Below are positions 23,864 through 64,000 of a stretch of DNA of 64,000 bases, piece after piece. Numbering within the stretch: position 1 is the stretch's first letter; each line of letters starts with the position of its first letter. Origin of the DNA: Marsupella aquatica. Its lineage: Eukaryota; Plantae; Marchantiophyta. The notes below the pieces were generated by a model. It ran no database searches. It was not told the origin of the DNA and saw only the letters and a list, made by a program, of their open reading frames with translations. Where the stretch lies: the NCBI GenBank assembly GCA_973895155.1, contig OZ316891.1:26101899-26165898 (forward strand), written 5' to 3'. The position numbers were made by a program, and so were the translations under genes.

Positions 23864-24074
23864 TATAATGACTATGTGAAACCTAGCTACTAGTTTTGGC
23901 TGCGTAGTTTTGAGTGAATATATTTACCTATATAATCACTATGTAAACCTCCTAGTTTTGGCTTTGTATTTTTGAGTGCATATATCTACTTATATAATCA
24001 CTATGTGAACTTGCTAGTTTTGGCTTTGTATTTTTGAGTGCATATATTTACCTGTATAATCACTATGTGAACCT
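23864..24074. repeat. ~62-bp tandem repeat (about 3.3 copies; further degenerate copies at ~21320-21427)
   Basis: Units tataatcactatgtgaacctcctagttttggctttgtatttttgagtgcatatatttacc start at 23864, 23931, 23993, 24055. Confidence 0.85.
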
Positions 24075-28730: not shown

Positions 28731-30160
28731 TAACCTTCGATCACAAGGCCCACACCTTGTGATCAAGAAAGGCACAAGTATGTCCCAAGGTATGTATGGA
28801 GTGTTTGGGAGTTTTAGCTCTGAATGGAGGGCAAGCAAGGTGGTTCAGCCGAGGGTTCAGCTTAAGCCTGATAGGAAGGGGGCAAACATATATAGAATTA
28901 CTCCCATCTCAACTTGAACATAGGGGGAACATAGTAGGATACAAATGACTTTTGAATAAAATTGTGCTGATTCGGCAAGCAGCAGTAGTGTCTGTGAGGA
29001 CATAGTAATTGAACTAAAGTACACTTTTTCTCCAATTGACTGGTTTTCCAGATTTTTGATCACTAAGGCGGTGTTTTCCGGGGAAGATGGTAGTGTATGT
29101 ATTGTGCATGGATTACCTACATCTAACCATGTGTTCCTACCCAAGAACAACTCTCTAATGGATTGGATGGCAAACACGGCAGATGAAATTTAGGATCTTC
29201 AATTATTATTACCGTAATTTAGGAAAGTTGAAAAATCACAAGTTTATTTTGCCAAATTACAGGTCTAATTACCATTTCTTCACAGAATTGCGAATAGTGT
29301 TATTCAAGCAAGTAACAGAGCTAGACAAAATAAAAGCAATAAAAAGTAATTTTGTCGTATGGGGACTTGGGTTAGACTCTTCTGACCAGATTTCTTGGCA
29401 AACTTGTTCAATTCATTCCCGCCAATTTAAAGTAAGTTCCCAAAATAAAATGAGACAAAATACTCCTTTTAGGCACATTAATGAGAAAGTAAAAGTAAAC
29501 TCTCGAGGGATATGCTTGATGGACCCAGCCATAAAAGATAGCTTTCCCTGATCAGCCCTCACGAAACGTTTTTTACAAACTCAACCTCCTCTTAGAGCCA
29601 GACAACATGTTAGAGCCAGGCTATGTTCTTGTAGTGTAGGTTCTTCTCAAGTGAGGTATTGAAGACTTGGACCAAACTCTTTTACTGGCCTTTTTGTCAA
29701 TTTCTATTTTAAGTTATTTGCATTAAAAAGTGACCCACAAGTCTTTCATAAGATCTTCTCTTCTCCCCTCTACAGTAGAAAGACTTTGGGCTGTCTTGCA
29801 TGTTCAAGAGTCCTGAAAAATGCGACCCTTAGCAGTTCACAGATGTACAGAAAAAAGTGTGGACCCAGGATCTAAACACAATCAAGAACAGCTTATGTGT
29901 GAAGTGCTCTCCAGCCAAGCATATCCCTCCTAAAATTTTACACATTTTTTTGGCAAAGCGACAAAAAAGGCCTCTTCAGCATACTAAAGACAAAGTCAAA
30001 GTAAACTCCCCAAACTCTCCCACTCAAGGTCCCCAAAACAATTTCACAAAATCCAACCAGACAAAAATTGCCTTGTAGGCACATTAAAGACAAAGTAAAA
30101 GAATCAAGTATTCCGACTTTTGCTAAAACATCATTCCCTATATTTAACAAGACACCCAAT

Positions 30161-30783
30161 TGAGGGAGATATGGCCCCGAAAGTGTCATGAAAAATCACC
30201 CTGCCGAAATCGAAGAAGAGAGTCAAAATCAAATCCGAGGAGAACTGTGGCGAAACTTGACCGTTTGGGCTGATCTTGGGGTCGATTTGAAGCGCCTCGA
30301 GAAGAGCTTTCCGAATCAGTGGACAGATCCAGATTCCGAGAAAAACTGAGGGAGATATGGTCCCGAAACTGTCACGAAAAAGCACCCTGCCGAAATCGAA
30401 GAAGAAAGTCGAAATCAAATCCGAGGAGAACTGTGGCGAAACTTGACCGTTGGGGCTGATCTGGGGGTCGATTTGAAGCGCCTCGAGAAGAGCTTTCCGA
30501 ATCAGTTGACAGATCCAGATTCCAAGAAAAACTGAGGGAGAGATGTTCCCGAAACCGTCACGAAAAAGCACCCTGCCGAAACCGAAGAAGAAAGTCGAAA
30601 TCAAATCCGAGGAGAACTGTGGCGAACTTGACCATTTGGGCTGATCTTGGGGTCGATTTGAAGCGCCTCGAGAAGAGCTTTCCGAATCAGTTGACAGATC
30701 CAGATTCCGAGAAAAACTGAGGGAGATACGGTCCCAAAACCGTCACGAAAAATCACCTTGCCGAAACCGAAGAAGAAGAAAGT
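30161..30783. repeat. 186-bp tandem repeat, about 3.3 near-identical copies
   Basis: Unit starts tgagggagat at 30161, 30347, 30533, 30718. Confidence 0.95.
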
Positions 30784-30789
30784 TTACAA

Positions 30790-33408
30790 GTGGCCCAAGG
30801 TTGATGGTCTTTCAATCAGAATCTTCGAAACCACCACTTCACCTATGCCTTCCTCCATGCCCCTCGTTGCGCTGCTGGTGGCCCCTCCGGCTATGTCTTT
30901 GAGCATTTTCGTGATTTATTCCCCCTTGAGGATCCTTAGTCTGGTTTTCCAGTTTTCTTCTCCTTTTGCCAGTGTATTGCAGCCGGTCGTTTGCCTCCTC
31001 CCGTCTCTCGGCTCTTGAGTGCTTCTCGTTTATTGGCCTTGGCTAAGTCTCACCGGGTGTTCGGCCAATTGCTATTGGGGAGGTTTTTCTTCGTCTGGTG
31101 TCTCGCACACTTTCCTCGCAGTTTCGCTCTGCACTATCGGATCATCTCTCTCCACATCAGTTTGCAGTGGGCGTTCCTGGCGGTTGTGAGACAGTTATTG
31201 CGGGTATTCGAGCTACCTTGGACCTCCACCCTGATTGGGTTGTCCTCTAGGTTGATGTCTCTAACGCTTTTAATACGGTTTCTCGGGCAGCCATTTTTCG
31301 TGCTTTGAGGGCAGCGGATCCAGACATCCAGTCCCTGATCCCCTTTGTCCGTTGTTTTTATGGACTCGAGGCCCCACTCTTCTATAGTCATCACTCCTCT
31401 ACCGGAGTGTATACCACTCTTTCTTCTGCAGAAGGTACACGTCAGGGTGACCCTTTGGGTGGGCCTCTTTTTGCCATTGCCCATTTTACAGCTTTACGGG
31501 AAGCCGCCATGGCCCACCCCCAGTGTATCTTTCCCTCCCTTTCAGATGACACCCACATCATTGGTCCTCCTACTGCGGTTACTTCTGCCCTCGCCACTCT
31601 TTCCACCCATTTGATGGGCCTCAGTTTACGGGTTCAGCCTGTGAAGAGTCGTGCATGGAGTCCAGCTGGGTTACCCTCTGATCTTGCGCTTCCTCCAGGG
31701 TTCTTACGTCCAGCCGATGGTCTTCGGGTCCTTGGCTCTCCAGTCGGTACCGCCTCCTTTTGCTCATCTTTCATCACTGACGCTCTACAGGCCGCCTTAG
31801 CCCCTACTCCTATGCTCCCTAAGTTAGCAGATTCTCAGGCAGCATTTGGGATGTTGTTGAGGTGCATCCACCCTCGTGCGTCTTATCTGGCTCGGACGCA
31901 TCCCCCTACCGAGGATCTTTGTCTCCACCTTCGAGCATTTGATGTCTCCATTCGTGAGACTCTGGCCTCTCTTTTAGGGCCGGGTACGTTGCTCTCATCT
32001 CCGTGGCTTCATCGACAACTCGGTCTTCCTATTTCGCAGGGTGGTTTTGGTCTTACTTCCATTGAGAGCCTTGCACCTTTGGCCTTTTTGGGTGCGTGGG
32101 CGGCCGCCTTCTCATTGTTGGCCGATCGTTTCCTTACTGAGGATCGCCATTTTTTACTTTCATCTCTCATGGAGGTAGAGGAGGGTTCCCTCCCGTTTCA
32201 GGTTCATTTGCGCGCGGCGCGGTCATCATTACCAGATCCCGTTCGCGCTGCGTTCCCTTCTTTTCAGGAGTTTTTATCCTTGGATCCCGTCCGTCTTCAG
32301 GCAGACCTCGCTGGGCGTATGCACGCTTTCACCCTTTCCAGCATCCTCTCCGAGGCACCTGACACAGACCGAGCTCGGATTCTTTCTTCCGGAGGGAAGG
32401 GCGCAGGAGGATGGCTTCATGCCAATCCAGTCATTCCTCATTTGCGGATGTCTTCAGCGGAGTTCTCCACAGCCATGCGTCTTCGTATGGGGCTGCCCCA
32501 CCCACTTCTTGCAGGTTTACCTCCTTGCACTTGTGGGAAGCCTTGTGATGCCACAAGTGTCCATCTTCTTCGGTGCAGTTTGGGAGGTGAAACCATTACT
32601 GTTCACGACGCGGTGCATGATGCGACTGCTCAGGTTCTCTCTGGCTCTTTGGTATGCGTGCGGCGGGAGGTGGTACTCGAGTTACCTGGTCCTCCATCCC
32701 AGCGGTTACGAGTGGATCTTACTATGGTCCGTGAGGGTCAACGTACTTTGGCAGATGTAGTGGTGGCAAACCCATTGCGCTAAGACATCCTTGGGACAGC
32801 GGCAACAACGGCAGGGGCAGCAGCGTCACGTGCGGCAACAACGAAGGAGGCCAAATATGTTGCACGAGCTTCATCCGACAGCTTCCTCCCCCTTGCTCTA
32901 GAGCTCTTCGGGCGTCTTCATCCTCAGTTTGATGGGCTTCTTCGGCAAGCTGCCCGGGATGTTCATGGCCGAATGGGTCCCACCGGACCCCCGCTATCTG
33001 TTTTGACCATGCACTTTCACCAACGCATTTCAGTCACCTTACAGCGTGCTCAAGCTCGGGCCATCTATCGTCGATCTCTTACAGTGGGTGCTAGTGTGCC
33101 TCCGCATCGGCTAGCTCCCCTAGAGGATGTTCCAATCCCACTTGCCGATCTAGTTTTGACCCTTGATGTGGACCATTAGCTTTTTGTCACATTTGCTACG
33201 AATGATGTGGACCTCGGTCCGGTTGGGTTAGTTTTAGTCCCTCTTTCTTGGTTTTTAGGGGTTCCCTATTGCTCATTTCTTACTTTTAGTTCCTCTTTTT
33301 GGGTGTTTTGAGGTTCTCTTTTGTTCACTTCTTTTAGGTTTGGTTTTGTACACTTGGACCCTCTTTTGTTTGTTCTTGTGTTCAGTGTTTGGTCCCTTTC
33401 TATAAAAA
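30790..33408 (+). mobile_element. CRE-clade (R2 superfamily) non-LTR retrotransposon with RT, CCHC finger and restriction-like endonuclease; N-terminally truncated, slightly decayed
   Basis: AAGGPSG, SRLLALAK, GVRPIAIGEVFLRL, HQFAVGVPGGCE, VL*VDVSNAFN, GTRQGDPLGGPLFA, SLSDDT, LGLPISQGGFG, CTCG...HLLRC, RVDL...LADVVVANP, KEAKY, FLPLALELFG. Stops at 30937, 31248, 32781 and a frameshift near 31055; ORF ends 33179; T-rich 3' UTR and short A tail to 33408. Confidence 0.85.
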
Positions 33409-47640: not shown

Positions 47641-47929
47641 GTGTCACCTCTGGTTTGAACCCGAGGCGTTTGTGCGTACATAAGGGCGATTGGAGGCTGT
47701 GTCACCTCTGGTTTGAACCCGAGGCCACTGTGGGTACATAAGGGCGATTGGAGGCTGTGTCACCTTTGGTTTGAACCCAAGGCGTTTGTGGGTACATAAG
47801 GGCAACTGGAGGTTGTGTCACCTCTGGTTTGAACTCGAGGCCACTGTGGTACATAAGGGCGATTGGAGGTTGTGTCACCTCTGGTTTGAACCCGAGGCCT
47901 TTGTGGGTACATAAGGGTGGTTGGAGGCT
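47641..47929. repeat. 58-bp tandem repeat x5
   Basis: Units gtgtcacctctggtttgaacccgaggc...gtacataagggcgattggaggct start at 47641, 47699, 47757, 47815, 47872. Confidence 0.95.
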
Positions 47930-49462
47930 GGCCCAAACAGGTCACTTTGTGTTTGGGACAATGCCTGCAAGTTTGTTCGCAGGAAGCGTAAAAGAAATTC
48001 AAAAACAAATCAAAATTGCATTCCAAAAAACAAAGAGAGGGGTTAGAAAACAATAGTTTAGCAATTTTAGTTGTTTTTCAATTTTTGACTAAACAAAATA
48101 TATACTAAATTTTTTATTAATTACAGTGATACATCTGTTTACATAAGAATGACCGTGTTTCAACAAGCTGTCACTATTCTTAGTCAGAGTAAAGACCACA
48201 AAGCTATCTCTTCATTAGTGTTTCTTTCGCCTCCTATGAATATTGAGTTTTCCTTCCCGTCCTGCTTTTCATTGTTTTTAGATTTATGGCTTCAGCGATT
48301 GGCCCAACTCTCACATCACATGAACAAGATTCACAGCCACAACAATAGTAGTTCGCCTACACAATTCTAGATACTGCTTCAGTCCACTCCTACAGTGAAT
48401 CTGGAAGACATGGTCCAAGTTAAAATCTAGAAGGCTTTGAGTTTCTGGGATACAATTCCATAGCATGTAGAGTGTCCTTTGCAAAAACCAGATGAAGCAG
48501 AATCTGAATTTTGAAGCCAAAATTATTTTTTCTCATTGCTTGCATCCACACTGTCTGTCAATGAGAAGTTCTGAGTACATCCATAGCTTCAATGGCTTCT
48601 TCTACAAACATGATAATTGCATTTGGATAAGCTTTTCTTCTTGTACAATAGCCAGTTCTCTTTCCCCAATTGGAATGTGGTGGTCCATCATGCTTATTTG
48701 TGTCACATGTGTGCACAAATTGATTTATATAGAGGAGCTTTTCTGTTGTGGCAGTGCAAACATATATAGTGGGAAGCTTACCACAGCCCAGTATATTGTT
48801 TTCCCCGGCAAACAACAGCCATGCAATCATTGGCACCATAGGACATAACTTTGAATTGGACTAATAGGTATGAAACAGAGTTTGGCTGTTGTATTTTTGT
48901 CTAGAAGACAACTCAAAGATCTACCTGTGAATTCAAAATGTGGCCCCATGAAGGACACTTATCTGCAGGCTCTGGCCTTGTACATTTTGGATTTGGGCAG
49001 GCTGTCATGGCTCAGGTTTTGAGATGGTTTCTATGTAAAGGAAGGATGACTTGTGAATCAGTGGCTTGAACTATATTGGCCTTGACCTTCTTATGAAAGA
49101 ACAGACTGATGTGCCACAACAGTGGGGTTCGAGGCTTGCTTGGATTCATTAGGCATTTGTTAGTAGGAGGGTAACACTAGCGGGAACACTAGTCAAGATG
49201 ATATAGTGGACCCCGCCGACTTGGAAGAGATTCCAAGTAAACACAGAATGCGCTTATGGACTGTGCACTTAGACATCCTGGGCCCTCAGCCTGTCTCTCT
49301 TGCGAACATGACAACTGAAGGGTTATTTCAATCAATTTTAAACTAACTTTTATCAATTATTACCAATAAGAGGGATTTTTTATGGGGAAAGGGAAGGGAG
49401 AAGGCCAAAAAAGGGAGGGTGTATATCCATAGGTAGGTTCAATAGTTTATATGTAGTGACAG

Positions 49463-52400
49463 TTAGCTCAATGCCTGTGTGTTGCACAAAAGATATTGTT
49501 CCATAAAATATGTCATTTAGTGAAAGATGTTGCGGCGTCTAAGATGTTGTCAAGTAAAAAGATCTCATTGTGTCAAAGATATCGTTAAGTACAAAGATGT
49601 TGTGACGCCAAATATGTCTCTAAGGCAAAAGATATTGTTACGTCCAAGATGTTGTTGTGTCAAAGTTGTTGTGATGCTTTAAAAGATGTTGTTGCATCAA
49701 TGAAGTCACTAAGTTGAAGATGTCATTCTAAGTAAAACAATGTTGTTGCGTCAACAATGATTGTTGATAAGTAACTTACGGATGTTTTTTTTATAAGTAA
49801 AACCCGCAAAACCTTACGGGAAAGGGGGCCAAAAAGGCAACATAGAGGCCCAAACAGGGCAGGCAAGCAGCCAAAAGAGCAACCAACAAAACCCCACTAA
49901 AACCGAAATAGACCACACTACCAAGAAAAAACCCAGGGCAAGAGGCCCCAGGGCAAAGACAGCTGAAAACATAGCATCACCGCCCATGTAAGCCCTAGAG
50001 ACCTGTGCTATCTAAGGCAACCCAACCAGGGAACAGCCAAAAGTCTAAGTAGAGTGGGCTAAGGACAGATGTCATAATCAAGGAGAAATGAAGAACCGAG
50101 CCTCCGCCCGGGAGGCCCAATTCAAGTGTTCCTTAATAATTTCCTCCTTGGTCCGCAGCAACCGTGTGCGCCGATTGCAGGGGCCAGAATCCTCACACAA
50201 TCCATGAAGTTGATCAATGATCTCCGTAAATATCTTCAGCAGATTAAATACACTATCATTCAAGCAAGCCAAATATGCCAGAGAACTTGATACATCATGA
50301 AGACTATCACTGAGCGGGCAAGGCTGTGTCCAGAAAATGCGTCCATTAGTGCTTTCAGATCACCGTCCTGCAAGCCAGGTGATCAGATCCGGAAAAGTCC
50401 TGACAACCAGTTCCCAACCTTTGACCGCAAGCTTGCATGTAAAGAAAATGTGGGGTATGGTCTTAGGAACATGACAACACAGACCACAGGTACCATCACT
50501 CTTACGCATCTTTGATGCCCGGACATAATTAGTGAAAAGCCCTTGTGCAATCACTCTCCACAGAAATGTGCAAGACTTTGTGGGGAGATCAGACGACCAC
50601 AGTGAGTGCAAAAGTTTACTTTACTCCAATCAATCAGAGAGATGAAGGGACCAGATTCTGTTGAGTCTGGTGAAGTCATTGCCCTTCGTTCATAGGAGTT
50701 GATATGCTCTAGCATTGGGAAGAGCAAAGCGGCTCATTCTCTCCTTTTTGTCCGCCAGATCCAACACGCTACTGAAGAGCCAGCCTCCCTATCATCCGTA
50801 ATCCTTCTGATTCTCGTCACGAAGGAGATGCACAGCGCCCCCAACTCCTCGTCCAAGCCTCTGATCTTGTTGAGCTTGTGTCGGGCATATTCAGGAGTGT
50901 TGCCACCCCAACGTCTAAGGTCAGAGACCTTTCTCAGACCAATCCGGCCACAAGTCCTGATCAGCATGCCTTTCACTTCTTCTTGTAGATCCTGAAACCC
51001 TTCCAGACTCCCAAGTATATCTTCAATGCTCCGCCAAGCGGCCACAACAGCACCAGCAGGCGAGAATAACAGATGAGTACGAAGTACTTCCCAGGCTTTC
51101 CATAGATTGCCAATATAGCTCAATCCGTCCGCTGAATGAGTGAGGATAACACAGTAAGAGGTGGTCAGAGAGGGAATAGCCATTTCTCCTGATTGTCTGT
51201 TGATTACGTCATTTTGCCATTTTCAGATTCTTGTAGTTAGTAGAGCTTGGCCCAGTATGTGTCCGGGTGATCAAGCGCCTTGTAGAACCATTGTGCTAGG
51301 AGTGAATCCAAGTGGCTCCTAAATTCCTTGAAGCCCAGCCCACCCTCAACCTTTGGGCGGGCCAATGTCTTCCAAGCCATCAATGGCACCTTTCTCCCCC
51401 CTGCAGCATTGTATCCCCAAAGGAAGTCACGGCATAGAGCCACCATTTTCCTGGCCAGGGCAGTTGACGAATGTAAGAACATCATATGGTAAATGGGTAC
51501 AGCTTGAAGAACATGTTTTACCAGTATAGTCCTGCCTGTGAATGACAAAAACCTGGTGGCCCACATAGAGAGCCTGGATTCAATTTGATCAAGACAGAAT
51601 GTGTGGAGCTTGGAGGCCTGTATCCCCCATCCCAAAGGAGCACCTAGGTACTTATGTATTTCCCCTTTCCGACTAATGGTGCAACCTGTCTCTGCAAGCC
51701 ATTCCGGAATCTCATTGAGTCCCAAAGGTATTACCGTCGACTTATGCAAATTCAGTTTTGCACCCAAAGCCAGCTCGTAAAAATCCTCAAGATTAGCAGG
51801 AATGAACATTCCGAGGTCGTCAGCAAAACATTTGTAGCATATCGTCAACACCTCCGATATCTGAATTCCTCTCAGGGTGTCTTGTGCCAGTTCTCCATTT
51901 AAGAAATCCATGAATGGTTGGGTCTATAGTACACACAATAGAGGAGAGAGTGGGCAGCCTTGGTGTACTCCTCTTAGCATTCGAATGTCCTTAGAAAAGA
52001 GGCCATTAATGTGAATCTTGGAGCTGCCTCGCCCCCATAACAAGAGATCTAACCAGCCTGATGAAGCCTAAGTAACTTACGGATGTTGTTAGCAAAAGAT
52101 GTTGTTGACATAACATATGGCGTTAACCAAAATATAGTGCCAGGTAAAAGATGTCGTTCAGTGAAAGATGTTGACGTGAAAAAATTCATTAAGTAAACAA
52201 TGTTATTGTGTACTAAGTAATGATGTTGTGTGCAAAACATGTTGGTTCACAAAACATTATTGATAAATTTGTGATGAATGATGTCCTGAGTTTCATCCCA
52301 CCTTGGGATCTCAGGTCCAGGCGCAACTGGGAGTTGCCGCCCCCATCCTCGGGGCAAGTCAACTCGTGTTTGGGGTGAGTCAGGCCAGCCAGGGCGCTTT

Positions 52401-52910: not shown

Positions 52911-54557
52911 AAAATAGAAATAACAAGGGGGAAGAGACACAGGGTCACGATCTTGGGGGTGTTCACTAATATTACATGGACTGAGGGCCCAGGGGAGAGA
53001 AGGGAGTTGGCCACAGCAGGCCAGGGTGGCCAATCTTGGTCACGGGAGGGTTCTGGGTACACAAATGAGGGAGGGTCACCACGTATTATGCCGGGCAAAA
53101 TAGCACAAGTGGAGATTTTTTCTCTTCTTGCTTCCTTGCTTCCCGTTTCCATTTCTTTCACCCAAAATGGCCCAGCAATTTTTAATTACAACCACGCAAA
53201 AGAAGGCACAACATTGTGACTACTATAGTTTTTGACAAGGACCCAGGGCTTTGACATGGTCAACTCAGGGGTCACTAGAAGAAAACGTCCCCTTTTGAGA
53301 CCCTATGCTTTGTGACTTTAGGGAGACTTTCAAAAATACATGACTCCAAGTTTAGGGGAGTCATTGTTGTTACATTTTATCAACTGATTTTTGGGGGATA
53401 TTTGTGAAAGTCATTCCTACAACTTCTGATAAAGTAGCAATTGTAACACTAGTAGGGCAGTCATATGTAAGTTGAATAAGCTACTCTCCATTACGGCATT
53501 CTGAAATAGAGTGCAAGAAGGGGTACATGCACTCTAGACATCACGGAATGTTCCATTTACAACCCTTGACTTGCAACTTGCGGAGTCGGGAGCACTAGGT
53601 TCACATAGAAGGAATGGGGGTGGGTGGGTTGCAGAACTAGTTAAATGTCTTCGTGACAAGAGCATTGTAGTTATCCTAGCCTAATTAAACGTGCATGGGA
53701 GTACTTGCCTCTATAATAGTAAGTCTTATGCTGCTCAATGGATTCCTTAGAGTTCATGGGCAACTTTGACAAGAATATTAATTGGGGTGACATCATTTCC
53801 AATTCAGGGCTAAAGTAGTGTCTGGCCCCCATTCTTTGTCCACCCTCCCTAAGTGGCATGTGTAAGGCTTAATTTACAGTTGCATTCTAAGGGGTTACAG
53901 TTGCGTTCATTTAATCTTTGCTCACAAAGTGTCGTGTCCAATTTGCTTTAGGGTACTAACATGTGCATCAACGGCTCATGTCAACGCAAAGTGGTCAAGG
54001 CTCATTGGGTTTGGTTCACTAAGTGTCACTAAGTGTTAAGGTATGCTTTGTGCGTGAGTGTGCCTTTGGACACGAGTTTAGGGTGCGCGGGTTTTGTTTA
54101 GGGTTTAAACACGCCAGCAGAGTGCAAAGTTTAGTTCAATGTGCGTGGGAACTCGAAGGTTTTTGTTTCAGAAAAACTTGCTTGTCCATTACGGGGACAT
54201 TCGTCGTGCCTGAAGGTCAGCACATTGTGCGCGGTCTCACGAAGTGGGGAGTGTGCTTCGCGATCGGGGCAGTTCCTTCGCGTAGGGAAGTTTTGTGCTT
54301 GGAGCTTGAAGGTCTAGAGCATTCAAGCTGAGAGGGCGACCGGCTTGCGGAGTGGAGAGGTGAGCTGCAGTGGGCGACAAGCTCTAGGACTGGGAGGAGC
54401 TGTGGGCAGGCAGGAGCTGCAATTTGGGAGCTGCTCTGGCCGCCGGTCTGGCCGAGGAGCTACGAGCGGAGAGGAGCTGGAGTGGAGCTGGAGTGGAGTG
54501 CAGCTTCTGTCACACACTGCTGAGGATTGCTATGTAGCTTCAGTTTGGGCGGCGGTG

Positions 54558-54680
54558 TGAGCGGAGGTGCTGAGAGCGGAGGTGAGAGCGGAGGTGCTAA
54601 GAGCGGAGGTGCAAGCGGAGGTGCTGAGGGCGGAGGTACGAGCGGATGTGCTAAGAGAGGAGGTGGTAAGAGAGGTGCTA
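54558..54680. repeat. GC-rich 12-15-bp minisatellite (gagcggaggtgct)
   Basis: About 9 degenerate units; produces a spurious Gly-rich ORF. Confidence 0.8.
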
Positions 54681-54954
54681 TTGGATCACTGAGAAGGCTG
54701 CAACCTCTCTATCTTATTCCTACTATTTGGCGGTTGCAGTTGGAAGGAGGGTCGAGTGGCAAACATTTTGTCAGTTGAGGACTCAGCTGCGGGTTTGTCA
54801 TTTCCTGGAGCTCAATCGCCTGCTGCTAAGACTACTGTTGCTGCAATTGCGAGTTGCTCGATCATGAGCTACCTAGCTCCATTGTGAGTTGCCTCCCTAT
54901 TCTCCTTATTCTCCCTGTCTCCCCCAGGTTGCTTGCAGTTACTATCGCCGGGAA

Positions 54955-55753
54955 GAATGTGTTTGGCCAAGATGCTAGATTGCGACTTGTCTTCTTGCTT
55001 CTAGCTCGTGTATATGCTGGCATCCGTGGGGGTTCCTTGAGTTTGAGTCTGCAGAGGAAGAGTCTATCATAGTCTAATTAAATGTGGGCCATATTACTCT
55101 AGTCAATGAATGAGTTCCCTGGAAATAGAACCTCTCTGATTATAGAGGTGCGATTTGGTCAGAATTTTTTCCCCTCTCATTGTATCCACTGATGCCAACT
55201 CACTTTCATCACCTCAATTATGAACAATGAGTGTAGTCTCAGGCTCCATACTGCCTATACTGAATGGTCTAGCTGCAATGTCCACCTCGGCTGAAGTGAG
55301 CTCTGACTTGGAGCCTTAACATTTGTGTTCTATGGGGCTGAGCAAAGTTGGTTCCATCCAGAAGCTGCTCTACTGAAGTGATCGAGCTCCGGCTTGGAGG
55401 TGGATCTTCACTTTTTTGTGGATCTGAGTGACTTCTGTCTAGCTGGGCTTAGCTGAGTCAGTAATACATTCAAAAGAGGTGAGTATCCCTGACCAACATT
55501 TATGCTTAAGGAACCTGCATTTCCTTCCCTGTCCCCATGCTATCTCCACTGCACCTTCCACTGCTAGCTATGTTGATTCCTTCCACTGCTAGCTCTAGAC
55601 AATGATGCAGTCCAAATGCTGATCAGTCTCACTGGGGGTGCCGGTGCAGACATGACTCGCATTGTGTGATTGTAGTTTTGCTTTGTTGGGACGAATGTGT
55701 TTGGCTAAGATGCTAGATTGTGGCTTGTCTTCTTGCTTCCATCTCGTGTATAT
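54955..55753. repeat. 61-bp direct repeat pair 738 bp apart
   Basis: gaatgtgtttggc.aagatgctagattg...ctcgtgtatat at 54955-55015 and 55693-55753. Confidence 0.85.
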
Positions 55754-58427
55754 TCAATTAGTAGAAGCTGGGAACAAAGTGAAAATTGAATTTCCTTATA
55801 TTAAGCATCCCGACCTAGAAACTCAATACATAAACTCCAGGAGTCCCTTGGGACATAAAATGAGCCAAATTGTTTCAAAATTGGGAACCTGCAAAATTGG
55901 GAACCTGCAATTGGGAACCGGCAACTCAAACAAATGTGTTGGGCCTGGTGGCCTTGTAAGTCGTCTTCAGCTTTCGCGATGGAGGTTGAATCTTGCGGTA
56001 CGTCAAGGGGAACTTGACCTTTGAATCATGGAACTGCTTGGTACTTTCTCGCTTGCACAGAGAGACAGGGACTGTCGTAGTCTTGATGATCTGGATGCAA
56101 GGGAACCGAACTCTATGACAAGAAGCCATCTCATCCTACATCTACTCTACAGCTCCGTTCAATGTGGTATCACGATATTCCTTGTACATGTTGTGATAAC
56201 CTGTACGACTCTAATACCTCACCCAGATACCAAAGTTCTTAATTGTGGTGGGCTTCTTTCCGAAGATCTGGTAGACACATTATTCAGCATTTGCTAACTT
56301 CAAAACTAGAAGGGACACATTAACCAACAGAGAAACTCACAACATCCTCCTTTGGTCCTTCAGAGTCTGTACTTTGATTATGAAGTTTGAGTGAGTTTCT
56401 GTTTACTAAAAGAATGTGACTGTGTAAGAGTTCCGTTTGGCAGTGGATTGGTTGAAGCACTTCATGCTAGTGTGTTGTCCACAACTCTTCAACCAGCTTT
56501 TGTATTCCTTGTCTTTCACCACTTACGATGACATCAATCCAGCTAAAACCATAGAAGGTTCCAAAGCATCTAACTTGTAAAATCGCATTCTATTACATCA
56601 AGGACTAAGGTGTTGGGTGCCAAAGGAGACAACACAACAAACACGCTGAAAAGACTTCAGGACTAGGTTCAACAAGGTAGTGAAGGTGCTTAAAGCCATA
56701 GTAAGTATGCATTTTGTATCTTTCTTTGTTGATGTGAGCTTGTGCATAATGGGAGTTGTAGTTGGCAAGAGTTCCATAAGGCCAAATATGAATAGATCCA
56801 GAAGTATGTGTATGAACCAAGTGTAGAGTTGACTCTTTGTAAATATTGTAGTCTCTTTCTGAACGTACAGTTTGGTATGGCCAACGCCATGCGATTATGT
56901 ACTTGCTCTATAAAGTTCTGAAGATATAAGCATTTTCTGTTAGACCAGGCAACTTGGGAGTTGGTAAGTGTCACCTGCATCTGAGGGGCTACACCGGGGG
57001 CATCAGTGGAGGTTCACTTGCACAACACGACAGCCAGTGAATTTTCTCTCTACTGCAACCTGCAAGGTGAGACTTTCGGTCTTTCTGGATGAAAACACAG
57101 GATTTTAATATGATTGATATACATGTCCATCGAGAACATGGGTTTATCACCAAGCTCTTTGTCTTAGGAAACTCATACACTCAGAATCAAATATGTACTA
57201 TGCATGTTTCATGCTATGTGTATACTATGACCTGTAGTTGGAACCAAGACAGTGAGTGGGAACTGATTAGTTTAGGTTGGTTGCTGTTGGCAAGGCCTCC
57301 TACTCACCTTGCTCATCAAAGGACGTGAATAGAGGACATCACAACAAAAGCAACACTTATGGTGAGGACCCGCAACGCTGAACATGTGCGGCTTGCACGC
57401 AAGGCAGAGATGTTGTGCCTTGAGTATGTCAGACTTGGGATCCTTCCAGCCCAGTCTGCATAGTACTTTGAGTACCCTGTTGTTTCCAGGAACAACTACA
57501 GCCGGCCTTTACCTGCTTCAGTACCCATCCCAACGTCCTTGGTATTTGTGTCTCTTGTACATGACCCGCCACAAATTAGGTGCCAAGGGTGTGTGCACAG
57601 TTGCCAATATGACTGTCCTGCCTGCAGGGCTTCTGGCCCAGAATTGGATGACCGTTCTCTTGGATGCCGATTTTTGCACAGAGCACAGTGTATCATTTGG
57701 AACCACTCGCCATCCTGCAGTGTGCCTGGTGATGTCACTTGTCCTGCCCTCCCAGACCCCACCACTGGTGGCTTTGGTGTCTACACATGTTTGGATCACA
57801 TGCTCTAGAGGACCACTTGTCACACCGCATGCACAGACCAGATACCATGATTGACCTATACCTTAACACTCTGACTTCAACACAGAGGATATTTACTTAA
57901 AATTTTGATGTATGAGCAATTTTGGGTCCAGGGTTTAGGGTCAATAGTACACAACTTATCCTATCATGCCTGCACTAAGCAAAATATCCTAATTTAAGGG
58001 GCTAGCAAACTCGCTTAAAAGTCTCTATTGAAAGTCTGCTTTAATATTGCTTTAACCTGGTGAACATTGCAACGTTTAATGAATTAATGGGCAATGTGAT
58101 AACCTGCAAAATGTGATTTATGCCTCACTTATTTGTCTCAGCCACTATCATAGCCTATTTAGGATGTATAAATTCCAACCCTTATGACACTGCTTCATAC
58201 CAATCCTCTTCAAAGAATGCCTGTTTTACATGTCACGACTATTGTATGTGATTGAAATGCATGAAATGTTGATGCAGATCTCCTTTGGTGAATCATAGCC
58301 ACAATTAAAATTGAGGTGTTGGTAAAGCAATTGTATTAGGGGATCAGTTTTGTGTGTGGGCTCAACATACCAAAAGTATGTCTGCTCTGCATCCTTGTGT
58401 GGCCATTCCAATTCATTGCAGTAGCAC

Positions 58428-58569
58428 ATGCCTTTGTACCTTAAATGCTAAATATATTTTACTTTCTATGCAGTCTGCTAAATTGTAGAGTCTATCTAAA
58501 TGCCTTTGTACCTTAAATGCTAAATATATATTACTTTCTGTGCAGTCTGCTAAATTGTAGAGTCTATCT
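58428..58569. repeat. 72-bp tandem duplication immediately upstream of the PHD ORF
   Basis: atgcctttgtaccttaaatgctaaatatat...gtagagtctatct at 58428 and 58500. Confidence 0.9.
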
Positions 58570-58580
58570 CATGCGCAGGC

Positions 58581-59261
58581 ATGGCACGGCCTAAAATTCA
58601 AGCCAAAAAGCGTGTGACAGAGGTGAGAAACACAGGTGTACTTGGGGCAGATGCTACTAACTTCTCTGCAAGTCAGATTTTCCAGAAGGCAGCTCATTGT
58701 TGTGCCATTTGTGATGATGGTGGGGGCCTGGTCATTTGTGAGGGCCCTTGCATGAGGCATTTCCACCTCAACCCGGAGTCTGATCTTGCTGCAGAAAACA
58801 ACTGTCCAGGGGTGGGCCTCCCGTCAACACACCAGGGAGACTGGATGTGCACTGATTGTTTGGAGAAGCAGGCTAAGTGTGCACAGTGTGGGAAGTTGGG
58901 GTCCTATGAGGGCTCTGTTGATGCTGCAGCAAATGTTAGGAAATATCCAGACCGTTTTTGTGTGAGATTTTTCTGTTTTGAGTGTTTGCCTGCTCATGCC
59001 ATAGCTTGCCCACTTCATAGGTGCAAGGCATGTGATGAGCATGATCATGAGTACTGGACTGACATAGTCCACTGTGCTAGGTGTCCCACCATGTGGCACT
59101 ATCATTGCCTGAAAGATCGTCAAGCAGAGGGTTATGCTTGTGACAGAGAAATCTATGATCACTCTGCACATGGTGCTGATCGATGGATATTTTATTGTCA
59201 TCGCCATGCCATTGATCCTACCTTGCGCACTCCTGTGAGAGATCACATATCTTGGTTGTGA
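58581..59261 (+). CDS. Stand-alone EDM2-type composite (tandem) PHD zinc-finger protein, 226 aa, TE-borne
   Basis: CAICDDGGGLVICEGPCMRHFH...C...WMCTDC...CAQCGKLG...CPLHRCKAC...CARCPTMWHYHCL...YCHRHAIDPTLRTPVRDHI mirrors the EDM2 PHD region (CAICDNGG..CCEG.C.RSFH...CPLHKC...CRRCP..YH..CL...YC..HEID..L.TPVRDH). Basic N-terminus; ATG follows a gcag acceptor-like site. Confidence 0.85.
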   Translation: MARPKIQAKKRVTEVRNTGVLGADATNFSASQIFQKAAHCCAICDDGGGLVICEGPCMRHFHLNPESDLAAENNCPGVGLPSTHQGDWMCTDCLEKQAKCAQCGKLGSYEGSVDAAANVRKYPDRFCVRFFCFECLPAHAIACPLHRCKACDEHDHEYWTDIVHCARCPTMWHYHCLKDRQAEGYACDREIYDHSAHGADRWIFYCHRHAIDPTLRTPVRDHISWL

Positions 59262-59854
59262 AGCTAAACATTGTACATGCATAGTGCACCTGATGTGGAT
59301 GTACTATTTTTTGAGATTGCAGAGATTCCAATTTTGAAAAGGAGTTGGGTAGGCGAGTTTATATAGGCAGCACTTATCTTGTGCTCTGGCGTCAGTGGCT
59401 GGGTACATGCCTATAAAAACTTATCCTTACAAGCGTTCTTGGAAGTATTTAGGCTGAGTGGTCATTTTCATAAACACTTTCATCAGACTGCTAAATTAAA
59501 ACAGGACTTCTAAGTTGTAAGCGTATAAATTATCAGGCATGCAATTAATTAAATTGCCCTATAAGTTTGTCATTGAATGTATCCTCCTTTACAACAAAAT
59601 ATGTATGTGCCATGACAAGTTGGTTACACTTCATTTCACCTTCGATATGGATTTTTGTAGTATATATTCAAACAATGTCCTGCATCCGTGCAGGTGCCTA
59701 GTACATATTGTTCACATATCCCTTGTACCTATCAAAATCGGACCTGAGCACCAGTGGGCCAGATCAACTCAAAAAGCAGGAATTTTGTTGTCCTTGTATT
59801 GTCAGGTGAACCCATTCTTCCAAAATTCACTGTCATCACGTAGGGTGTGTGTAC

Positions 59855-61045
59855 ATGGAGCCTGGGAAACGTAGAAAGTGTGACCACCCAACAGTGTTTA
59901 CAGGGGTCAGAGCCATTTTGGTCCATGGCCAGCATGGGTTGACCAAAGTGCATTGGCCAACTGTACAGAAACGATTCTCTGAGCTCCATGGCACTGTAGT
60001 TCAGGACATCACTCCAAAGACTACACATGTTGTTGCAGGGACATGGCTATCAGTGATAAAGAAGTGGTCATGGTCCTACATGAATTCTGCAATTACTAAG
60101 CAAGGCCTAAAAGTAGTTGAGGCCTCTTGGATCACAGATTCCATAGCACATAAGATTGTACAGGATACTGAGCAATATGAGTTGTGGGAGGATGAAGAAG
60201 CTACTGCATCAGCTTGGGCTGAACAAGAAGTCTGGGAAGCAAAGGCACGGCTTGCTGATCTCCAATATGGACCTGTACTCAACAAAGGACAGAGCTCTAC
60301 AAGGCTGAAGAGTATGTTGGCTGAGGAGACAAAGCAACCAACCCCCATTCTGAAAGGGCTGAACATGGTATTTGTGGAGGTGGGAATTGGAGAGGTTAAG
60401 TGCAAAGTGTACAAGTCCACAGTGCTTGACCTAGGTGGGATAGTGGAGGAGAATATAACAGAGGACACCACTCATGTCATTACTAAGTCATATCCCAAAG
60501 CCTGCCGCAAGTTTGGGAAGGGAGACATTCGCTTTTATCAATCTATTCATTAAAAGTGAATTATTATTCAATTTATGAACATTTGGGTAACAAAAGTGTA
60601 CATTTGGCTTTCAAAAAGTGTACAATTGGACAAGAAATAAAGATGCTTGCCATCAAATGTACCACCATGTTCATCCTTTGTAAATAAACTAGGATGAGAC
60701 TCCTTCTAGTAAAGATCATTTTTTCACCCTCAAGTTTACAATTGATCATTTAGGTGTAGAGTAGTGTACATTTAGAGAACAAAAAGTGAACATTTAGAGG
60801 CCTAAAAGTGAACAAAATAAAATACACTTTTAATGAATACAGTGATTTTTATGTCATGTCCCATAATGTGTTTGTGGTTTCATATGCTTGGCTTGTGGAA
60901 TCAGTAGCAGTTGGGAAACGTCAAAACCCAATGGACTATAGATGATCTTTTTGAGGCCTGGCCACGAAAGGGTCAGGATCCTTATAGAGAGGACTATGAG
61001 ACAACAAGTGAGGAATGGGTCATTAGCGATTCTGAATCAGAGTGA
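59855..61045 (+). pseudogene. Tandem BRCT-domain protein (DNA polymerase lambda-like BRCT), second BRCT split by a MITE
   Basis: MEPGKRRK (NLS-like). BRCT1 VFTGV...GTVVQDITPKTTHVV...VVEASWITDSI; BRCT2 ILKGLNMVFVEVGI...LGGIVEE...TTHVI, resuming after 60840 as VVSYAWLVESV...NPMDY. An acidic tail follows in a shifted frame to TGA 61043-61045. Confidence 0.75.
60544..60839. mobile_element. AT-rich MITE-like insertion with perfect 15-bp terminal inverted repeats
   Basis: tattcattaaaagtg (60544-60558) / cacttttaatgaata (60825-60839); internal aaaagtg(t/a)aca repeats. Confidence 0.7.
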
Positions 61046-61243
61046 GGAGTAGTAGCATCAGTTTGGACACAAGTTTTTTTGTATAAATCAGATCATTGAA
61101 ATAAATGTGATCTTTGAACTAATGTACCTTTGGTGGCAGTTGGGCTTATTTTACTGTTGGCGGATTGTTGTTTCCTGCTGCCTGGGGGTGTCACTGTAAA
61201 TGTACTGGGTGGGCTCAAATCTTGGCGGCAGACTTTGGTGGGT

Positions 61244-61675
61244 ATGTTGCCTTTCCTAGATCAACAGGCGCTATTACGGCTCCTCCTCCGGGTTGCCATA
61301 TGGCTGGCCACAGTTAGGACTCTCTTGCATGGGTTGGTGCTAAAACATTTCTTGGCACCGCCTGAGGATGCAAGAGACGCTGAATCTATCGTGAATGAGG
61401 ATGCACAGTTGGAAGTGGACATCTACTTTTCAGCAGATGAGTTAGACAAGCCCGATGTTGTAGGTGGTTCCTTGTTGCCTGATTTGGCAGATGATATAGT
61501 TCTTTCACATGTCTGGCCGAGGGTTCTCGTGGTGTCCTGTGCACAAGATATCTGCAAATATAGACAAATTAATACACGGTGGAGGGACTTGGTAGCAACT
61601 TGCCCCCAGTGGAGGGCATTGCATCCACTGCTTGTAGGCACGGATGCAAGACCCCATGGCATGAGCAATGTTTAG
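61244..61675 (+). CDS. F-box domain protein (TE-borne, possibly truncated)
   Basis: LLPDLADDIVLSHVWPRV...ICKYRQINTRWRDLV matches the plant F-box consensus LPxLPDDxxxxxLxRV...xxVCRRWRxLV; first in-frame ATG at 61244. Confidence 0.6.
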   Translation: MLPFLDQQALLRLLLRVAIWLATVRTLLHGLVLKHFLAPPEDARDAESIVNEDAQLEVDIYFSADELDKPDVVGGSLLPDLADDIVLSHVWPRVLVVSCAQDICKYRQINTRWRDLVATCPQWRALHPLLVGTDARPHGMSNV

Positions 61676-62102
61676 ACCTTGATGATTTAATGTACATGTA
61701 CCTGAGGTCTGAGTGGCATCGAGAACAGGGTTGGTACCCATATCTCACCTGGTAATAAGGTGAGATATCTGATACCACTCTCACACCTGTGCCTGTGACT
61801 ATACATGACTGGACTATGATATGGTCATGGGTGTACATGCAGAGGTGGTACATTTGAGGATAGCAGAGGAGGTGGTGACACCCTCCAATATTTAGGAATT
61901 TTGTGTCATTCACTTGACAATAGGTACACTACTCGCGAACCTGTTTTTTTCTTTTGAGGTGGTTTAGGGTTTGTGAGAATTTTGGTACACGTTATGTTAA
62001 CTCTTTTGGCAGATACAGTCAGGGATATATGGAACACAAATACCACCATTAGGCATCCTTGTTTCCTGCTGTCCATGACTGCAGAGCTCCCAGCCTGTTA
62101 CA

Positions 62103-62566
62103 ATGCACCCTGGTCACCACCCTCCCCAGACCCAGCCTAGGGCACAAGCACTGCCTTTGCATCATCCCACAAGGATATCACGCCATGATGATAAGCTTTG
62201 GCAGCGTGAAAGGTTACAAACCAGACTTTCAGGAGCCAGTAGGATGAGATGTCCTTGTGCAATCTGCCAAGGATCCCGTACCAGAGGTCTGAATGAGGTT
62301 TGGCGGCATATCGCGGTTCATGGAAGAGATCCACGACATCGAGTTTGGAATGATCCTACAGAGGAAGATTCTTCCGACGAGGAGTGGAGGTTAGAATTTG
62401 ATGCTACCAATGCTGCAAGACGGGCAAGTGAGGTTCTGCCTGGTGCATTTGAAAATGTTGTAGCTGGTCTCTGTGGGTTGTCAGCTCTCCAACGGGATGG
62501 TGCTCAGGCAGCACCACGTGACGAAGGAATTCATGTGGAAGAGATGTGAGAGACATCTTCCAAGAC
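62103..62566 (+). pseudogene. CACTA transposase N-terminus (Transposase-associated domain), truncated
   Basis: RMRCPCAIC...EVWRHIAVHGRDPRHRVW followed by an acidic stretch matches the CPCxxC..HL..GF...W motif that precedes Transposase_21 in TnpD. A frameshift near 62546 continues as RDIFQD, then coding ends. Confidence 0.7.
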
Positions 62567-62871
62567 TGTGACGGGGTCCCCGTCTCAAAAGGTCACCATT
62601 AGGTGTTATTGGCAAGATGCATGTAAATAAATAAGCCAATATACACAATAGTTTTTCAAAAAAAAATTAAGTTAATCATCCCGGTGTGTGTTCATGTTGC
62701 TTTGGAGGGCCGGGGCTATTTGAACCCGGGAGGAACTATTTTTTTTAATTGACCCTTTTCTCCCTTGGGTCTTGTCGTTGTGGGAGAAGAAAATTAGGCA
62801 TCTTAAGGGGATACCACCCATTAATATTTGGAGACCCCGGCAGTTTTTCTTGGCCCCGGTATAATATGGCA

Positions 62872-63075
62872 GAGGAGCCCGCGAGCCATGGGGCGCGAGA
62901 TGGAGGGTCGCCCTGCGAGTAGGCGGAGCCCCGAAAGGGTTTGCCGGGGCGTAAGTGAGGGGCAGCCGGGGAGGAGGAGCCCGCGAGCCATGGGGCGCGA
63001 GACGGAGGGTCGCCCCGCGAGTAGGCGGAGCCCCGAAAGGGTCTGCCGGGGCGTAAGTGAGGGGCAACCGGGGAG
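62872..63075. repeat. GC-rich 102-bp tandem duplication
   Basis: gaggagcccgcgagccatggggcgcgag...gtaagtgaggggca.ccggggag at 62872 and 62974. Confidence 0.95.
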
Positions 63076-63430
63076 GGAAAATTAGCAAAGGAGCCACGGG
63101 GTTTCTTTATTTTTTCCTTCCTATTTTCTCACTTCCTCTCTTTTGCAAGACCAACTCATTGCCAAAAGCAAAAACTCGGGCTCTCTCTCAACTCTTGCCG
63201 AAAGCTCTCTCCACATTTTGCAATTATTCTGAAAGCCCTTTCTCATGGTCAATTGTTGGGGCTTGTTGGCATGATTCTTCCGAGCATTAGCGGCAGCAGC
63301 ACGGAGTGGCTTCTGAGGGAATTGAGGGTAATTGATTGATCGGGATACGGGGGCCATTTCGGGCCAGGGGATTGACATTGCTACGGGTGACGGGATTTGG
63401 TGATTGAGGATTTGATTTCTGGATGCATGG

Positions 63431-64000
63431 ATGCTAGATCAACCGGAGTTTAGTGCGGCACGCGTTCGGAGATACAAGGCTGCTTACCGTGACTACATTG
63501 AGACATTGATTGCAAGAGAGAGAGAAGAGAGAAAAGCTACGATGAGTATTGGGCTGGCGGCAAGTTCCACACCAGTGAGTAGGAGCGTTTTTCGTCGAAT
63601 TTATCCCAAAACCTCCACCAAGGTGATGGAGGATTGTAGGAATATTTTTCAAGCCACCGGGCTCACGGAGTTCATGAAGGTGGAGATTACAATCCCTTCG
63701 GGGAAGAGTTGGAACATTGAGGCCGGGATGGAGTTACGTACGGAAGGAATCTACTTTTAATGTCTCTAGCGGGTAGTGCCCCATGTGGAGTTAGCTAAGC
63801 TTCTATTCCTGGAGAACCAGCAATTCTCATTCACACCTCGGAACATAAGGGGAGAGCTCACGTTGACAATGGTGGCCGGTTGGGTGATTAATCCCACCTC
63901 CACTACTTCCATTCCTCTTTCCGCCGTAAAGGATGCTGAGCACAAGGGATTTCTGGCCAAGGTTCATGAACGGGTCCTTGGTAACGTGCAATCTGGGGTG
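63431..64000 (+). pseudogene. Unidentified, probably TE-associated ORF with two in-frame stops; runs off the window
   Basis: The frame of ORF 63431..63760 continues past TAA 63758 and TAG 63767 without a further stop to 64000; no family recognised. Confidence 0.4.

Follow-up and report, generated by a model that had tools for sequence, protein, structure and literature searches.

A decayed CACTA-type transposon with a row of small ORFs, among them an old EDM2-derived PHD gene, in Marsupella aquatica

The locus studied here is part of a 64,000-nt stretch of Marsupella aquatica DNA (the window). It is one decayed copy among the many of a CACTA-type transposon that carries small ORFs in its 5′ half. 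One ORF encodes a stand-alone PHD protein that, judged by its sequence, is derived from EDM2 but is not an EDM2. With moderate confidence, we favor an explanation in which the ORF row is host-derived, the selected PHD protein probably works on the EDM2 pathway, and the BRCT protein probably docks repair factors. Our verdict is a CACTA element with old captured mini-genes, a combination that is new to the literature as far as we could find; a search returned no published description of a CACTA with mini-genes of this kind.

Terminus, repeat boundary, and layout of the ORF row

The 5′ CACTA terminus, CACTAGAAGAAAA, spans 53273..53285 (+) and occurs only once in the window. Directly before it stands GGT, the triplet expected of a target site, whose right-hand partner would fall outside the window. 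As claimed in the first-pass annotation, this sequence begins an element: the CACTA end at 53273 is a sharp repeat boundary by depth in public sequencing runs. Depth rises at the terminus bin in runs X1, X3, and X5; one X3 contig matches the flank until 53272 and then continues into 120 unlike letters, and a second X3 contig starts at 53272, with unlike letters before that point. Flank contigs had depths of 61–78 in X1 (112–157 for low-depth X3 contigs), and inside the element single X1 contigs reached 3,887 (terminus) and 12,714–24,208 (ORF row), with contig depth serving as a rough measure that gives no copy number and cannot rank parts. Cover was found in 30/30 bins in X1 and X3, 29/30 in X5, and 25/30 in X7, the last two being low-depth runs that could contain traces of another organism's DNA. 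All ORFs have high-copy cover, and the prospect that they might be single-copy, which had been named as grounds for abandoning the proposal, gave way to run contigs in which a high-copy CACTA-type family carries them. Neither a reverse partner of CACTAGAAGAAAA nor another 3′ TIR was found after 53273 in a search up to 64000. Position 62611, where the first-pass annotation closed the feature, is not an element end, and the element may extend beyond it. Subterminal repeats in 53273–54400, scored without a control run, comprised short families only (at best 5 copies of 10 nt), and no clear subterminal array was seen 3′ of the terminus. An 18-nt match of the terminus to a viral contig (L013) was set aside as chance, because it coincides with the start of a phage reading frame and the contig shows no further similarity to the window.

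The region that follows the terminus (53286..57358, +) is non-coding, repetitive, and, in the run contigs, less common to copies. Within it are GC-rich short repeats (54537–54683), a duplicated stretch of 66 nt, and three donor-like sites, at 55479, 56964, and 57067; it has no Rfam match, and from these sequence features it is likely to comprise a promoter and leader exons. Downstream, an ORF scan confirmed the reported four co-oriented ORFs within 4 kb, which start with ATG, lie on the + strand at 58581–59261 (226 aa), 59855–60553 (232 aa), 61244–61675 (143 aa), and 62103–62549 (148 aa), and span 3.97 kb, with the first ORF 5.3 kb past the terminus. From 53273 to 62611, the + strand holds five ATG ORFs of at least 140 aa; 200 Markov resamples averaged 0.08 such ORFs, and 0/200 reached five. 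Acceptor-like sites were found within 60 nt of 3/5 start codons versus 23/208 ATGs (P 0.011), using a home-made splice-acceptor score that was applied after the fact; the first-pass label 'intron-free' is accordingly unproven. None of seven window ORFs had a verbatim copy in the protein collection (0/7). A fifth, broken frame, ORF0 (57359..57808, +), had been overlooked; it is Cys/His-rich and 149 codons long, is interrupted once, by a stop at 57461–57463, is covered in all four runs (X1, X3, X5, X7), and has no family match (Pfam 0, PDB 0).

Could the row consist of several independent repeats nested in one place, or belong to an element other than the one whose CACTA end lies 5 kb away? We consider this improbable. 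Cover runs unbroken from 53273 onward in X1 and X3, all ORFs are co-oriented with the CACTA-type transposase domain, and contigs bridge the ORFs: from the PHD 3′ flank to the BRCT start (X5, 59315–59864), from the BRCT end to the 5′ region of ORF3 (X7, 60872–61201), and from the ORF3 3′ flank to the start of the transposase domain (X5, 61833–62169). As contigs span at most ~600 nt of the element, the order in other copies is chained from short contigs. The ORF0 and F-box bins kept ratios of 2.25–2.42 and 0.52–0.67, respectively, to the transposase-domain bin in 4/4 runs, with the proviso that depth cannot rank parts. Nesting would nevertheless fit the low cover over the first 2 kb at the 5′ end and over 62868–63251 (~3–13% of the transposase-domain bin), the one nested insert that is proven (in the BRCT gene), the PHD and BRCT bins, whose cover does not track that of the other bins in X5 and X7, and the lack of a 3′ TIR in the window.

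An old stand-alone relative of EDM2

The PHD ORF (58581..59261, +) is an open frame of 226 codons that holds the atypical 2.5-repeat PHD module of EDM2 proteins. Pfam matches to PHD-1st_NSD (E 4.6e-5) and PHDvar_NSD (E 0.0024) are both under cut-off. Its match to a grass RFD+PHD protein covers 210 aa at 30% identity and stops at a TPVRDHI motif that the two have in common. Position 122 is Tyr where 7/7 other full-length relatives have Cys, indicating loss of a conserved Cys.

A PHD profile search gave 560 matches, with short proteins ranked at the top and long ones next, and two of the long matches (P0018 and P0026) carry the name EDM2. The stand-alone relatives are 187–257 aa long and lack other EDM2 domains; 5/128 PHD candidates were of this type, with lengths of 217–245 aa. 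All 13 stand-alone relatives that were looked up came from raw assemblies only and had no informative name (13/13). These relatives sit on contigs of 1–13 kb, and some may be host genes; short EDM2-like genes also occur in grasses (L002, P0036). When the PHD profile was used to look for linked copies in metagenome contigs, each of the 11 loci recovered from 221 stretches was either an EDM2-like transcript of a host or an unrelated PHD gene. The profile matched 0/42 viral contigs and 1/20 prokaryote genomes (weakly, at 31%), and a word search for longer fused PHD forms gave 2/3361, both animal NSD proteins. In a careful tree of 35 rows, 11 stand-alone rows form one clade (support 94/90) of ~220-aa proteins, 35–81% identical, that branches deep among land-plant EDM2s. 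A quick tree had put this clade beside liverwort proteins; this placement was not kept in the careful tree and was dropped, and we therefore claim no donor.

Several features suggest that the stand-alone PHD is old and selected. Cys/His columns are invariant in 22/28 cases versus 20/182 for other columns (8 full-length rows, 35–81% identity), a count that is partly circular. A MAR start is common to 7/16 sequences and a HISWL/I end to 6/16. Open frames together with common starts and ends at 35–46% identity argue for selection on the PHD protein, the one ORF for which selection was evaluated. A recent, neutrally evolving host fragment, which the first-pass annotation had recognized as a threat to its case, is thus not what we find for the PHD, given the stand-alone clade, its 35–81% identity, the open frames, and the common ends.

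The same observations weigh on a further alternative, which we rate as quite unlikely, that the element is a Pack-CACTA, whose captured host pieces were amplified passively as cargo or camouflage and at most deter silencing, with DNA alone being what matters. Camouflage needs DNA likeness to a host gene, yet the PHD is only ~30% identical to EDM2-like proteins, and its open frames and common starts and ends at 35–46% identity need protein selection. There are precedents and signs that favor passive cargo: Chenopodium CACTAs have captured fragments upstream of the transposase-associated domain, for which a camouflage model has been proposed (PMC8978399); this copy is decayed, and 7/9 coding substitutions change the amino acid, as counted among 40 listed of 956 substitutions (12 of 123 indels between copies were listed); and the F-box module is dispensable. 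For ORF0, the BRCT gene, and the F-box-like ORF, the Pack-CACTA reading may still hold.

An acidic residue before the first PHD Cys probably has a role in H3 binding, with the caveat that EDM2's own PHDs are atypical. Such a residue occurs within the six positions before the first Cys in 0/15 stand-alone PHDs versus 115/118 other relatives, and because it is missing in 15/15, the 'histone reader' role of the PHD ORF appears doubtful.

BRCT repeats, a weak F-box, and a transposase-associated domain

The BRCT gene is in two parts. Part 1 (59855..60532, +) encodes BRCT repeat 1, the linker, and the first half of repeat 2; part 2 (60847..60945, +), whose codons are in phase with those of part 1, encodes the rest of repeat 2, including the W..S helix, and is followed in another frame by an acidic tail to about 61046. 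A MITE-like insert (60533..60846; 314 nt, 32-nt inverted arms of 87.5%, duplicated TTTT(AT)) splits BRCT2 and supplies the false stop of the ORF. The insert is absent in other copies, as three X3 contigs connect 60532 to 60847. An intron was also considered for this break and was dropped in view of the joined form in the contigs, the duplicated motif, and the inverted arms. Pfam recognized BRCT in two stretches of the ORF (E 1.4e-12), and each repeat alone scored above the cut-off of 21.3 bits (E 5.2e-6 and 1.4e-5; 27.0 and 25.6 bits). The repeats align with each other (0/2000 shuffles as good), and part 2 matches the end of BRCT1 (24/2000 shuffles as good). PDB matches were weak and only to other BRCT proteins, a single-sequence model of BRCT1 (pLDDT 37) was too poor for a fold search, and 0/7 viral contigs carried a BRCT.

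F-box-like ORF3 (61244..61752, +) is a weak call. Its stop at 61673–61675 results from a one-base loss at 61653 that other copies lack; in these, the next frame would be read for 33 codons. Pfam found no F-box in full ORF3, and an isolated 62-aa segment gave E 0.13–0.16 and 12.4 bits versus a cut-off of 20.5; the top Atlas match was an F-box cluster (0.90, 75/256 features, recognition 2277). There was no F-box match in the PDB, and the single-sequence model (pLDDT 51 overall, <50 over the motif) was too poor for a fold search. A Pfam N36 match was discarded as chance. Some copies in 4/4 runs have the module deleted, with joints at 61187–61676, 61201–61833, and 61226–61759, and no substrate-binding domain is recognisable in the ORF.

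ORF4 (62103..62602, +) encodes a transposase-associated domain (PF13963). Its stop at 62547–62549 reflects a one-base loss at 62545 that is absent in other copies, and the shifted frame ends at 62600–62602. The Pfam Transpos_assoc match (E 3.9e-5) is under cut-off, and 30/30 Atlas matches were to PF13963 (201/256 features). No catalytic Transposase_21 DDE core lies within the window, and a search for longer transposases found none among 460 candidates (0/460). The repetitive tail (62603..64000, +) has two copies of a 102-nt repeat and frames at 63416–63760 and 63770–64000, with no Pfam match in 63416–64000, and either continues this element or belongs to a nested one. A TnpA-type second ORF would be expected only past the end of the window. 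An LTR start at 62604 was tried and rejected, as no matching end or primer site was found.

Among the domains first proposed, the EDM2/NSD-type PHD, two BRCTs, and transposase-associated domain held up, and the F-box stayed weak by Pfam and Atlas. That the ORFs have 'their own starts and stops' was not confirmed, as three of the four stops are lesions of this copy (the 314-nt insert and two single-base losses). Because several stops reflect decay, we doubt the tidy 'trimmed modules' that had been offered as a selected toolkit rather than random capture; these are partly decay products. In its full three-part form, with the PHD reading H3K9me2 directly, the BRCTs engaging repair, and the F-box recruiting SCF to degrade silencing factors, the toolkit is unlikely. 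It draws on a PHD from the EDM2 family, with EDM2 binding H3K9me2 (PMC9910501), on solid Pfam BRCT repeats, on F-box clusters as the best Atlas matches, and on an F-box reported for a Zisupton transposon isoform (PMC12062965). The missing acidic residue before PHD1 (15/15) and an F-box that is under cut-off, without a recognisable substrate-binding domain, and deleted in copies in 4/4 runs stand against it.

A possible counter-silencing route and its known relatives

In our preferred explanation, mini-genes of intact copies would probably aid their own expression and the repair of cuts despite host silencing. The EDM2-type PHD protein would act on the host EDM2 pathway, yielding long transcripts from silenced copies, and the BRCT pair would dock repair proteins at the cut. 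As tnpA and tnpD of Spm are alternatively spliced (PMC8195511), the ORFs may likewise serve as alternative 3′ exons, all within a single transcription unit whose start lies close to the terminus. The transposase region would then lie 9 kb downstream, behind several ORF ends, and transcripts would reach it only by reading past proximal poly(A) sites that lie in heterochromatin. This step would be the one controlled by EDM2 with AIPP1 and ASI1 in Arabidopsis, where the EDM2 complex suppresses proximal polyadenylation (PMC7529245). Rather than reading H3 tails in the standard way, the trimmed PHD, which lacks the other EDM2 domains and the acidic residue, may mainly engage EDM2 partners as an adaptor or decoy, and the F-box-like ORF is probably an optional passenger.

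A bolder version, possible but improbable, is that an ancient CACTA lineage in early-diverging land plants has a multi-gene accessory unit with one leader, in which a re-tooled EDM2 module hijacks heterochromatin read-through. That unit would comprise the Cys-rich ORF, EDM2-derived PHD, tandem BRCT, F-box-like ORF, and perhaps more downstream, and silencing would be countered through RNA 3′-end choice, unlike the DNA motifs of VANC. The plant transposon counter-silencing proteins VANC, TnpA, and MURA bind DNA of their own elements. A transposon protein taken from EDM2, the host factor that lets transcription cross heterochromatin, would counter silencing in another way and, being stand-alone and 220 aa long, lends itself to testing. 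For a cut-and-paste element, a BRCT pair would offer a handle on how excision breaks pass to host repair, and the stand-alone PHDs reveal an unannotated mini-gene family. If the ORFs besides the PHD prove neutral, the case reduces to a Pack-type element with a single old captured gene.

BRCT repeat 2 may resemble the N-terminal BRCT of Pol lambda. In plant DNA polymerase lambda, this BRCT has Lig4 and XRCC4 as binding partners and is tied to repair at transposon excision sites (PMC4444747); the gene described here differs in having two repeats and no polymerase, and its weak PDB matches are to other BRCT proteins. The Zisupton/KDZ case likewise has an F-box inside a DNA transposon, but belongs to another superfamily, in fish, with the F-box within a large element protein rather than a weak stand-alone call (PMC12062965).

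VANDAL/VANC, KIU, and Spm TnpA are accessory proteins proposed to counter silencing, as here, and KIU shows that a transposon can retain a host domain (Ulp1) that it has captured (PMC10398659, PMC13317346). VANC differs in coming from a Mutator-type element and in its sequence-specific binding of tandem DNA motifs, with an effect that has been shown (PMC10398659, PMC13317346); no likeness to VANC was found in the ORFs of the window. With EDM2 and the ASI1-AIPP1-EDM2 complex (PMC7529245, PMC9910501), the PHD ORF has in common the whole atypical PHD module to its TPVRDHI end. Unlike EDM2, it has no RFD-like N-terminal part, acidic region before PHD1, or methyltransferase-like or other C-terminal domains, its second finger is shorter, and it is transposon-borne.

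The closest structural relatives are the En/Spm CACTAs, including maize Spm and the Jozin-like elements of Chenopodium, with which this element has the CACTA terminus in common (PMC8978399). CACTA ORF1 contains TAD, Transposase_21, DUF4218, and DUF4216, with TAD as the first domain, which is also present here, and Jozin-like elements, like this one, have extra captured sequence upstream of TAD; alternative splicing is a further likely similarity, judging by sequence. The known extras are Transposase_24 and Peptidase_C48 in ORF2, and the captured Chenopodium pieces are short non-coding fragments (80 bp of AP2, and Neprosin) (PMC8978399). This element, by contrast, has several ORFs of 150–250 codons upstream of TAD, at least one of which encodes a protein conserved over deep time.

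The CACTA terminus and the ORF row

The CACTA terminus lies at 53273, where the 13-mer CACTAGAAGAAAA has its single occurrence in the window, and is accompanied, as the first-pass annotation claimed, by four ATG ORFs in the same orientation that start at 58581 (PHD), 59855 (BRCT), 61244 (ORF3, F-box-like), and 62103 (transposase-associated domain, TAD). Five ATG ORFs of at least 140 aa occurred in 9.3 kb, compared with an expected mean of 0.08, and 0 of 200 resamples contained as many. Pfam and Atlas searches upheld the PHD, tandem-BRCT, and transposase-associated assignments, with two BRCT repeats above the Pfam cut-off, and NSD-type PHDs and PF13963 (TAD ORF; 30 of 30 Atlas hits agreed) under it, whereas the F-box call for ORF3 was weak. 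A fifth, Cys/His-rich frame with one internal stop (ORF0, 57359–57808) matched no family in our searches, was covered in all four runs described below, and may be a further accessory gene. The terminus and TAD fit a CACTA element; within the window we saw no reverse partner of CACTAGAAGAAAA downstream of 53273, and no 3′ end, target-site duplication, catalytic core, or TnpA.

The element is one member of a repeat family whose left boundary, at 53273, is abrupt. Parts of 57000–63000 were present in seven public sequencing runs from four organisms, and contigs from four runs (X1, X3, X5, and X7, the latter two shallow and possibly not independent carriers) were compared with the window. In the bin containing 53273, summed depth rose from 158–281 to 5,217 in X1 and from 200–1,179 to 6,155 in X3. 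One X3 contig matched the flank up to 53272 and continued with 120 unlike letters, representing an empty site or another neighbor, and a second began at 53272, preceded by a different flank. Single X1 contigs reached depths of 12,714 and 24,208 within the ORF row versus 61–78 for flank contigs; as a rough guide, since depth neither measures copy number nor allows parts to be ranked, this would correspond to hundreds of near-identical copies. The PHD-BRCT, BRCT-ORF3, and ORF3-TAD gaps were each bridged by contigs, piecewise, and none spanned the whole unit; we consider it very unlikely that the row is a nested pile. One X3 contig joined 62275 to 57268, linking the TAD region back to the ORF0 start, which suggests tandem or rearranged copies of the row. 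Contig cover was also locally higher in all four runs at 55956–56339, a stretch whose broken, Cys-containing frames may represent a further accessory ORF, or an exon, in decay.

Downstream of the TAD frame, which ends at 62602, lie AATAAA, then a 102-nt duplication and, at 63416–64000, a pair of unnamed high-copy frames with no Pfam match. In each of the four runs, cover of these features tracked that of the ORF row (0.40–1.22 of the TAD bin), so the element may continue past 62602, the alternative being a nested element. Elsewhere, the window, which probably comes from a non-seed land plant, contains LINE-type reverse transcriptase frames broken by stops (1–3381, 31251–33179, and 50734–51923; RVT_1 E-values of 5e-30 and 3.7e-4, the third having similar motifs and no Pfam hit), host genes in several exon-like pieces for a Cys/Met metabolism PLP enzyme (6037–9259, plus strand) and an ABC1 atypical kinase (16632–18862, minus strand), and tandem arrays at 21450–22650, 30158–30776, and 47641–47964 with units of ~18, 186, and 58 nt.

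Decay of the window copy

The window copy is decayed, and its ORFs therefore look neater than they are. The feature originally annotated is real but was partly misread, as the modules were credited with their own stops. The BRCT stop belongs to a 314-nt insert that has inverted arms, and falls within the left one; three X3 contigs joined 60532 to 60847, and the piece downstream of the insert is in phase and completes BRCT2 with its W..S helix. This MITE-like element (60533–60846) has internal AAAAGTG(A/T)ACA repeats and, its bin being deep in X5, is probably a separate family there. X1, X3, and X5 contigs carried one extra base at 61653 and at 62545, so ORF3 and the TAD ORF read past the window-copy stops, which reflect one-base losses relative to other copies. 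At one position the PHD ORF encodes Tyr, against Cys in 7 of 7 other full-length relatives. Joints deleting the F-box-like ORF occurred in all four runs, making this module optional. At 58430–58578, a 72-nt tandem duplication directly before the PHD start doubles acceptor-like sites.

Relatives and age of the PHD ORF

A word search identified 5 PHD ORF relatives among 128 candidates (217–245 aa, 36–81% identical). A profile search of 1.84 billion representative proteins gave 560 hits; among the best 150, short proteins ranked first and long ones after them, the latter including entries called EDM2 from a legume and from Selaginella, as well as hypothetical PHD proteins from Marchantia, Riccia, Calypogeia, and Diphasiastrum. 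The best solved relatives were NSD2/NSD3 PHD1–3 (E 3.3e-11). In a quick tree of 69 rows, 12 stand-alone rows grouped together (SH-aLRT 97) and five other short rows were scattered among angiosperm EDM2s. After removal of 15 long-branch, fragment, or duplicate rows and thinning of the remaining long proteins, a 35-row tree placed 11 stand-alone rows in one clade (support 94/90), whose branch arose from an unresolved fork shared with EDM2-like groups of liverworts, lycophytes, and angiosperms. Short EDM2-like PHD genes also occur in grasses (L002, L003, P0036, and P0043), on a branch separate from this clade; EDM2 has been cut down to its PHD module on more than one occasion.

Zinc ligands, starts, and ends are shared among stand-alone relatives down to 35% identity. 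A neutral frame would have closed over such a distance, and a recent neutral host-gene fragment, an outcome that the first-pass annotation named as fatal to its proposal, does not fit these open frames and shared ends. Judged by these comparisons, the PHD ORF is an ancient gene under selection, and we regard passive or camouflage cargo as quite unlikely as an account of the row.

AIRE-type PHDs hold H3K4 through an acidic residue before the first Cys. An acidic residue was present in the six positions before this Cys in 115 of 118 other relatives but in none of the 15 stand-alone proteins in which the motif was located, and the element's PHD protein may therefore have altered or lost histone-tail binding. 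A model in which the PHD reads histones directly and the F-box drives degradation is, in our estimate, unlikely.

A model for the element and known systems

Using a home-made score, we found acceptor-like sites close before 3 of 5 ORF starts versus 23 of 208 ATGs (P 0.011). Donor-like sites lie upstream of the ORFs. As alternative splicing yields tnpA and tnpD in Spm (PMC8195511), these predicted sites make one promoter with alternative 3′ exons plausible. Under this model, a single promoter would drive the ORFs as alternative 3′ exons, and transcription would have to run through several ORF ends in silenced chromatin to reach the transposase region. EDM2 of Arabidopsis brings AIPP1 and ASI1 to heterochromatin within introns and represses the use of proximal polyadenylation sites (PMC7529245). 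We favor the element's PHD protein acting as an adaptor or decoy within this pathway, although we rate this exact mode of action as less likely than not.

The BRCT pair would connect the excision break with repair. The element's BRCT may resemble that of Pol lambda. The latter binds Lig4 and XRCC4 (PMC4444747). We hold the structural part of this account (anatomy, repeat status, lesions, and conservation) with high confidence, and judge the whole, with the PHD as adaptor or decoy on a CACTA element using alternative exons and read-through, to be evenly balanced between right and wrong.

Within the openly accessible papers searched, judged by title and opening of the abstract in the looser searches, we found no description of a CACTA element pairing a PHD finger with BRCT or with an anti-silencing accessory, or of an EnSpm transposon with BRCT, and the terms PHD, BRCT, and F-box had zero occurrences in PMC13547354; a consensus with these ORFs may exist in Repbase or in a subscription paper. 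It is surprising for a high-copy CACTA family to carry a deeply conserved EDM2-derived mini-gene, and the idea could be tested at little cost. The element works like CACTA elements with captured cargo. Its PHD protein is not an EDM2, because EDM2's other domains are absent from it. If functional, the element would be like the VANC and KIU transposon anti-silencing systems in purpose but unlike them in kind.
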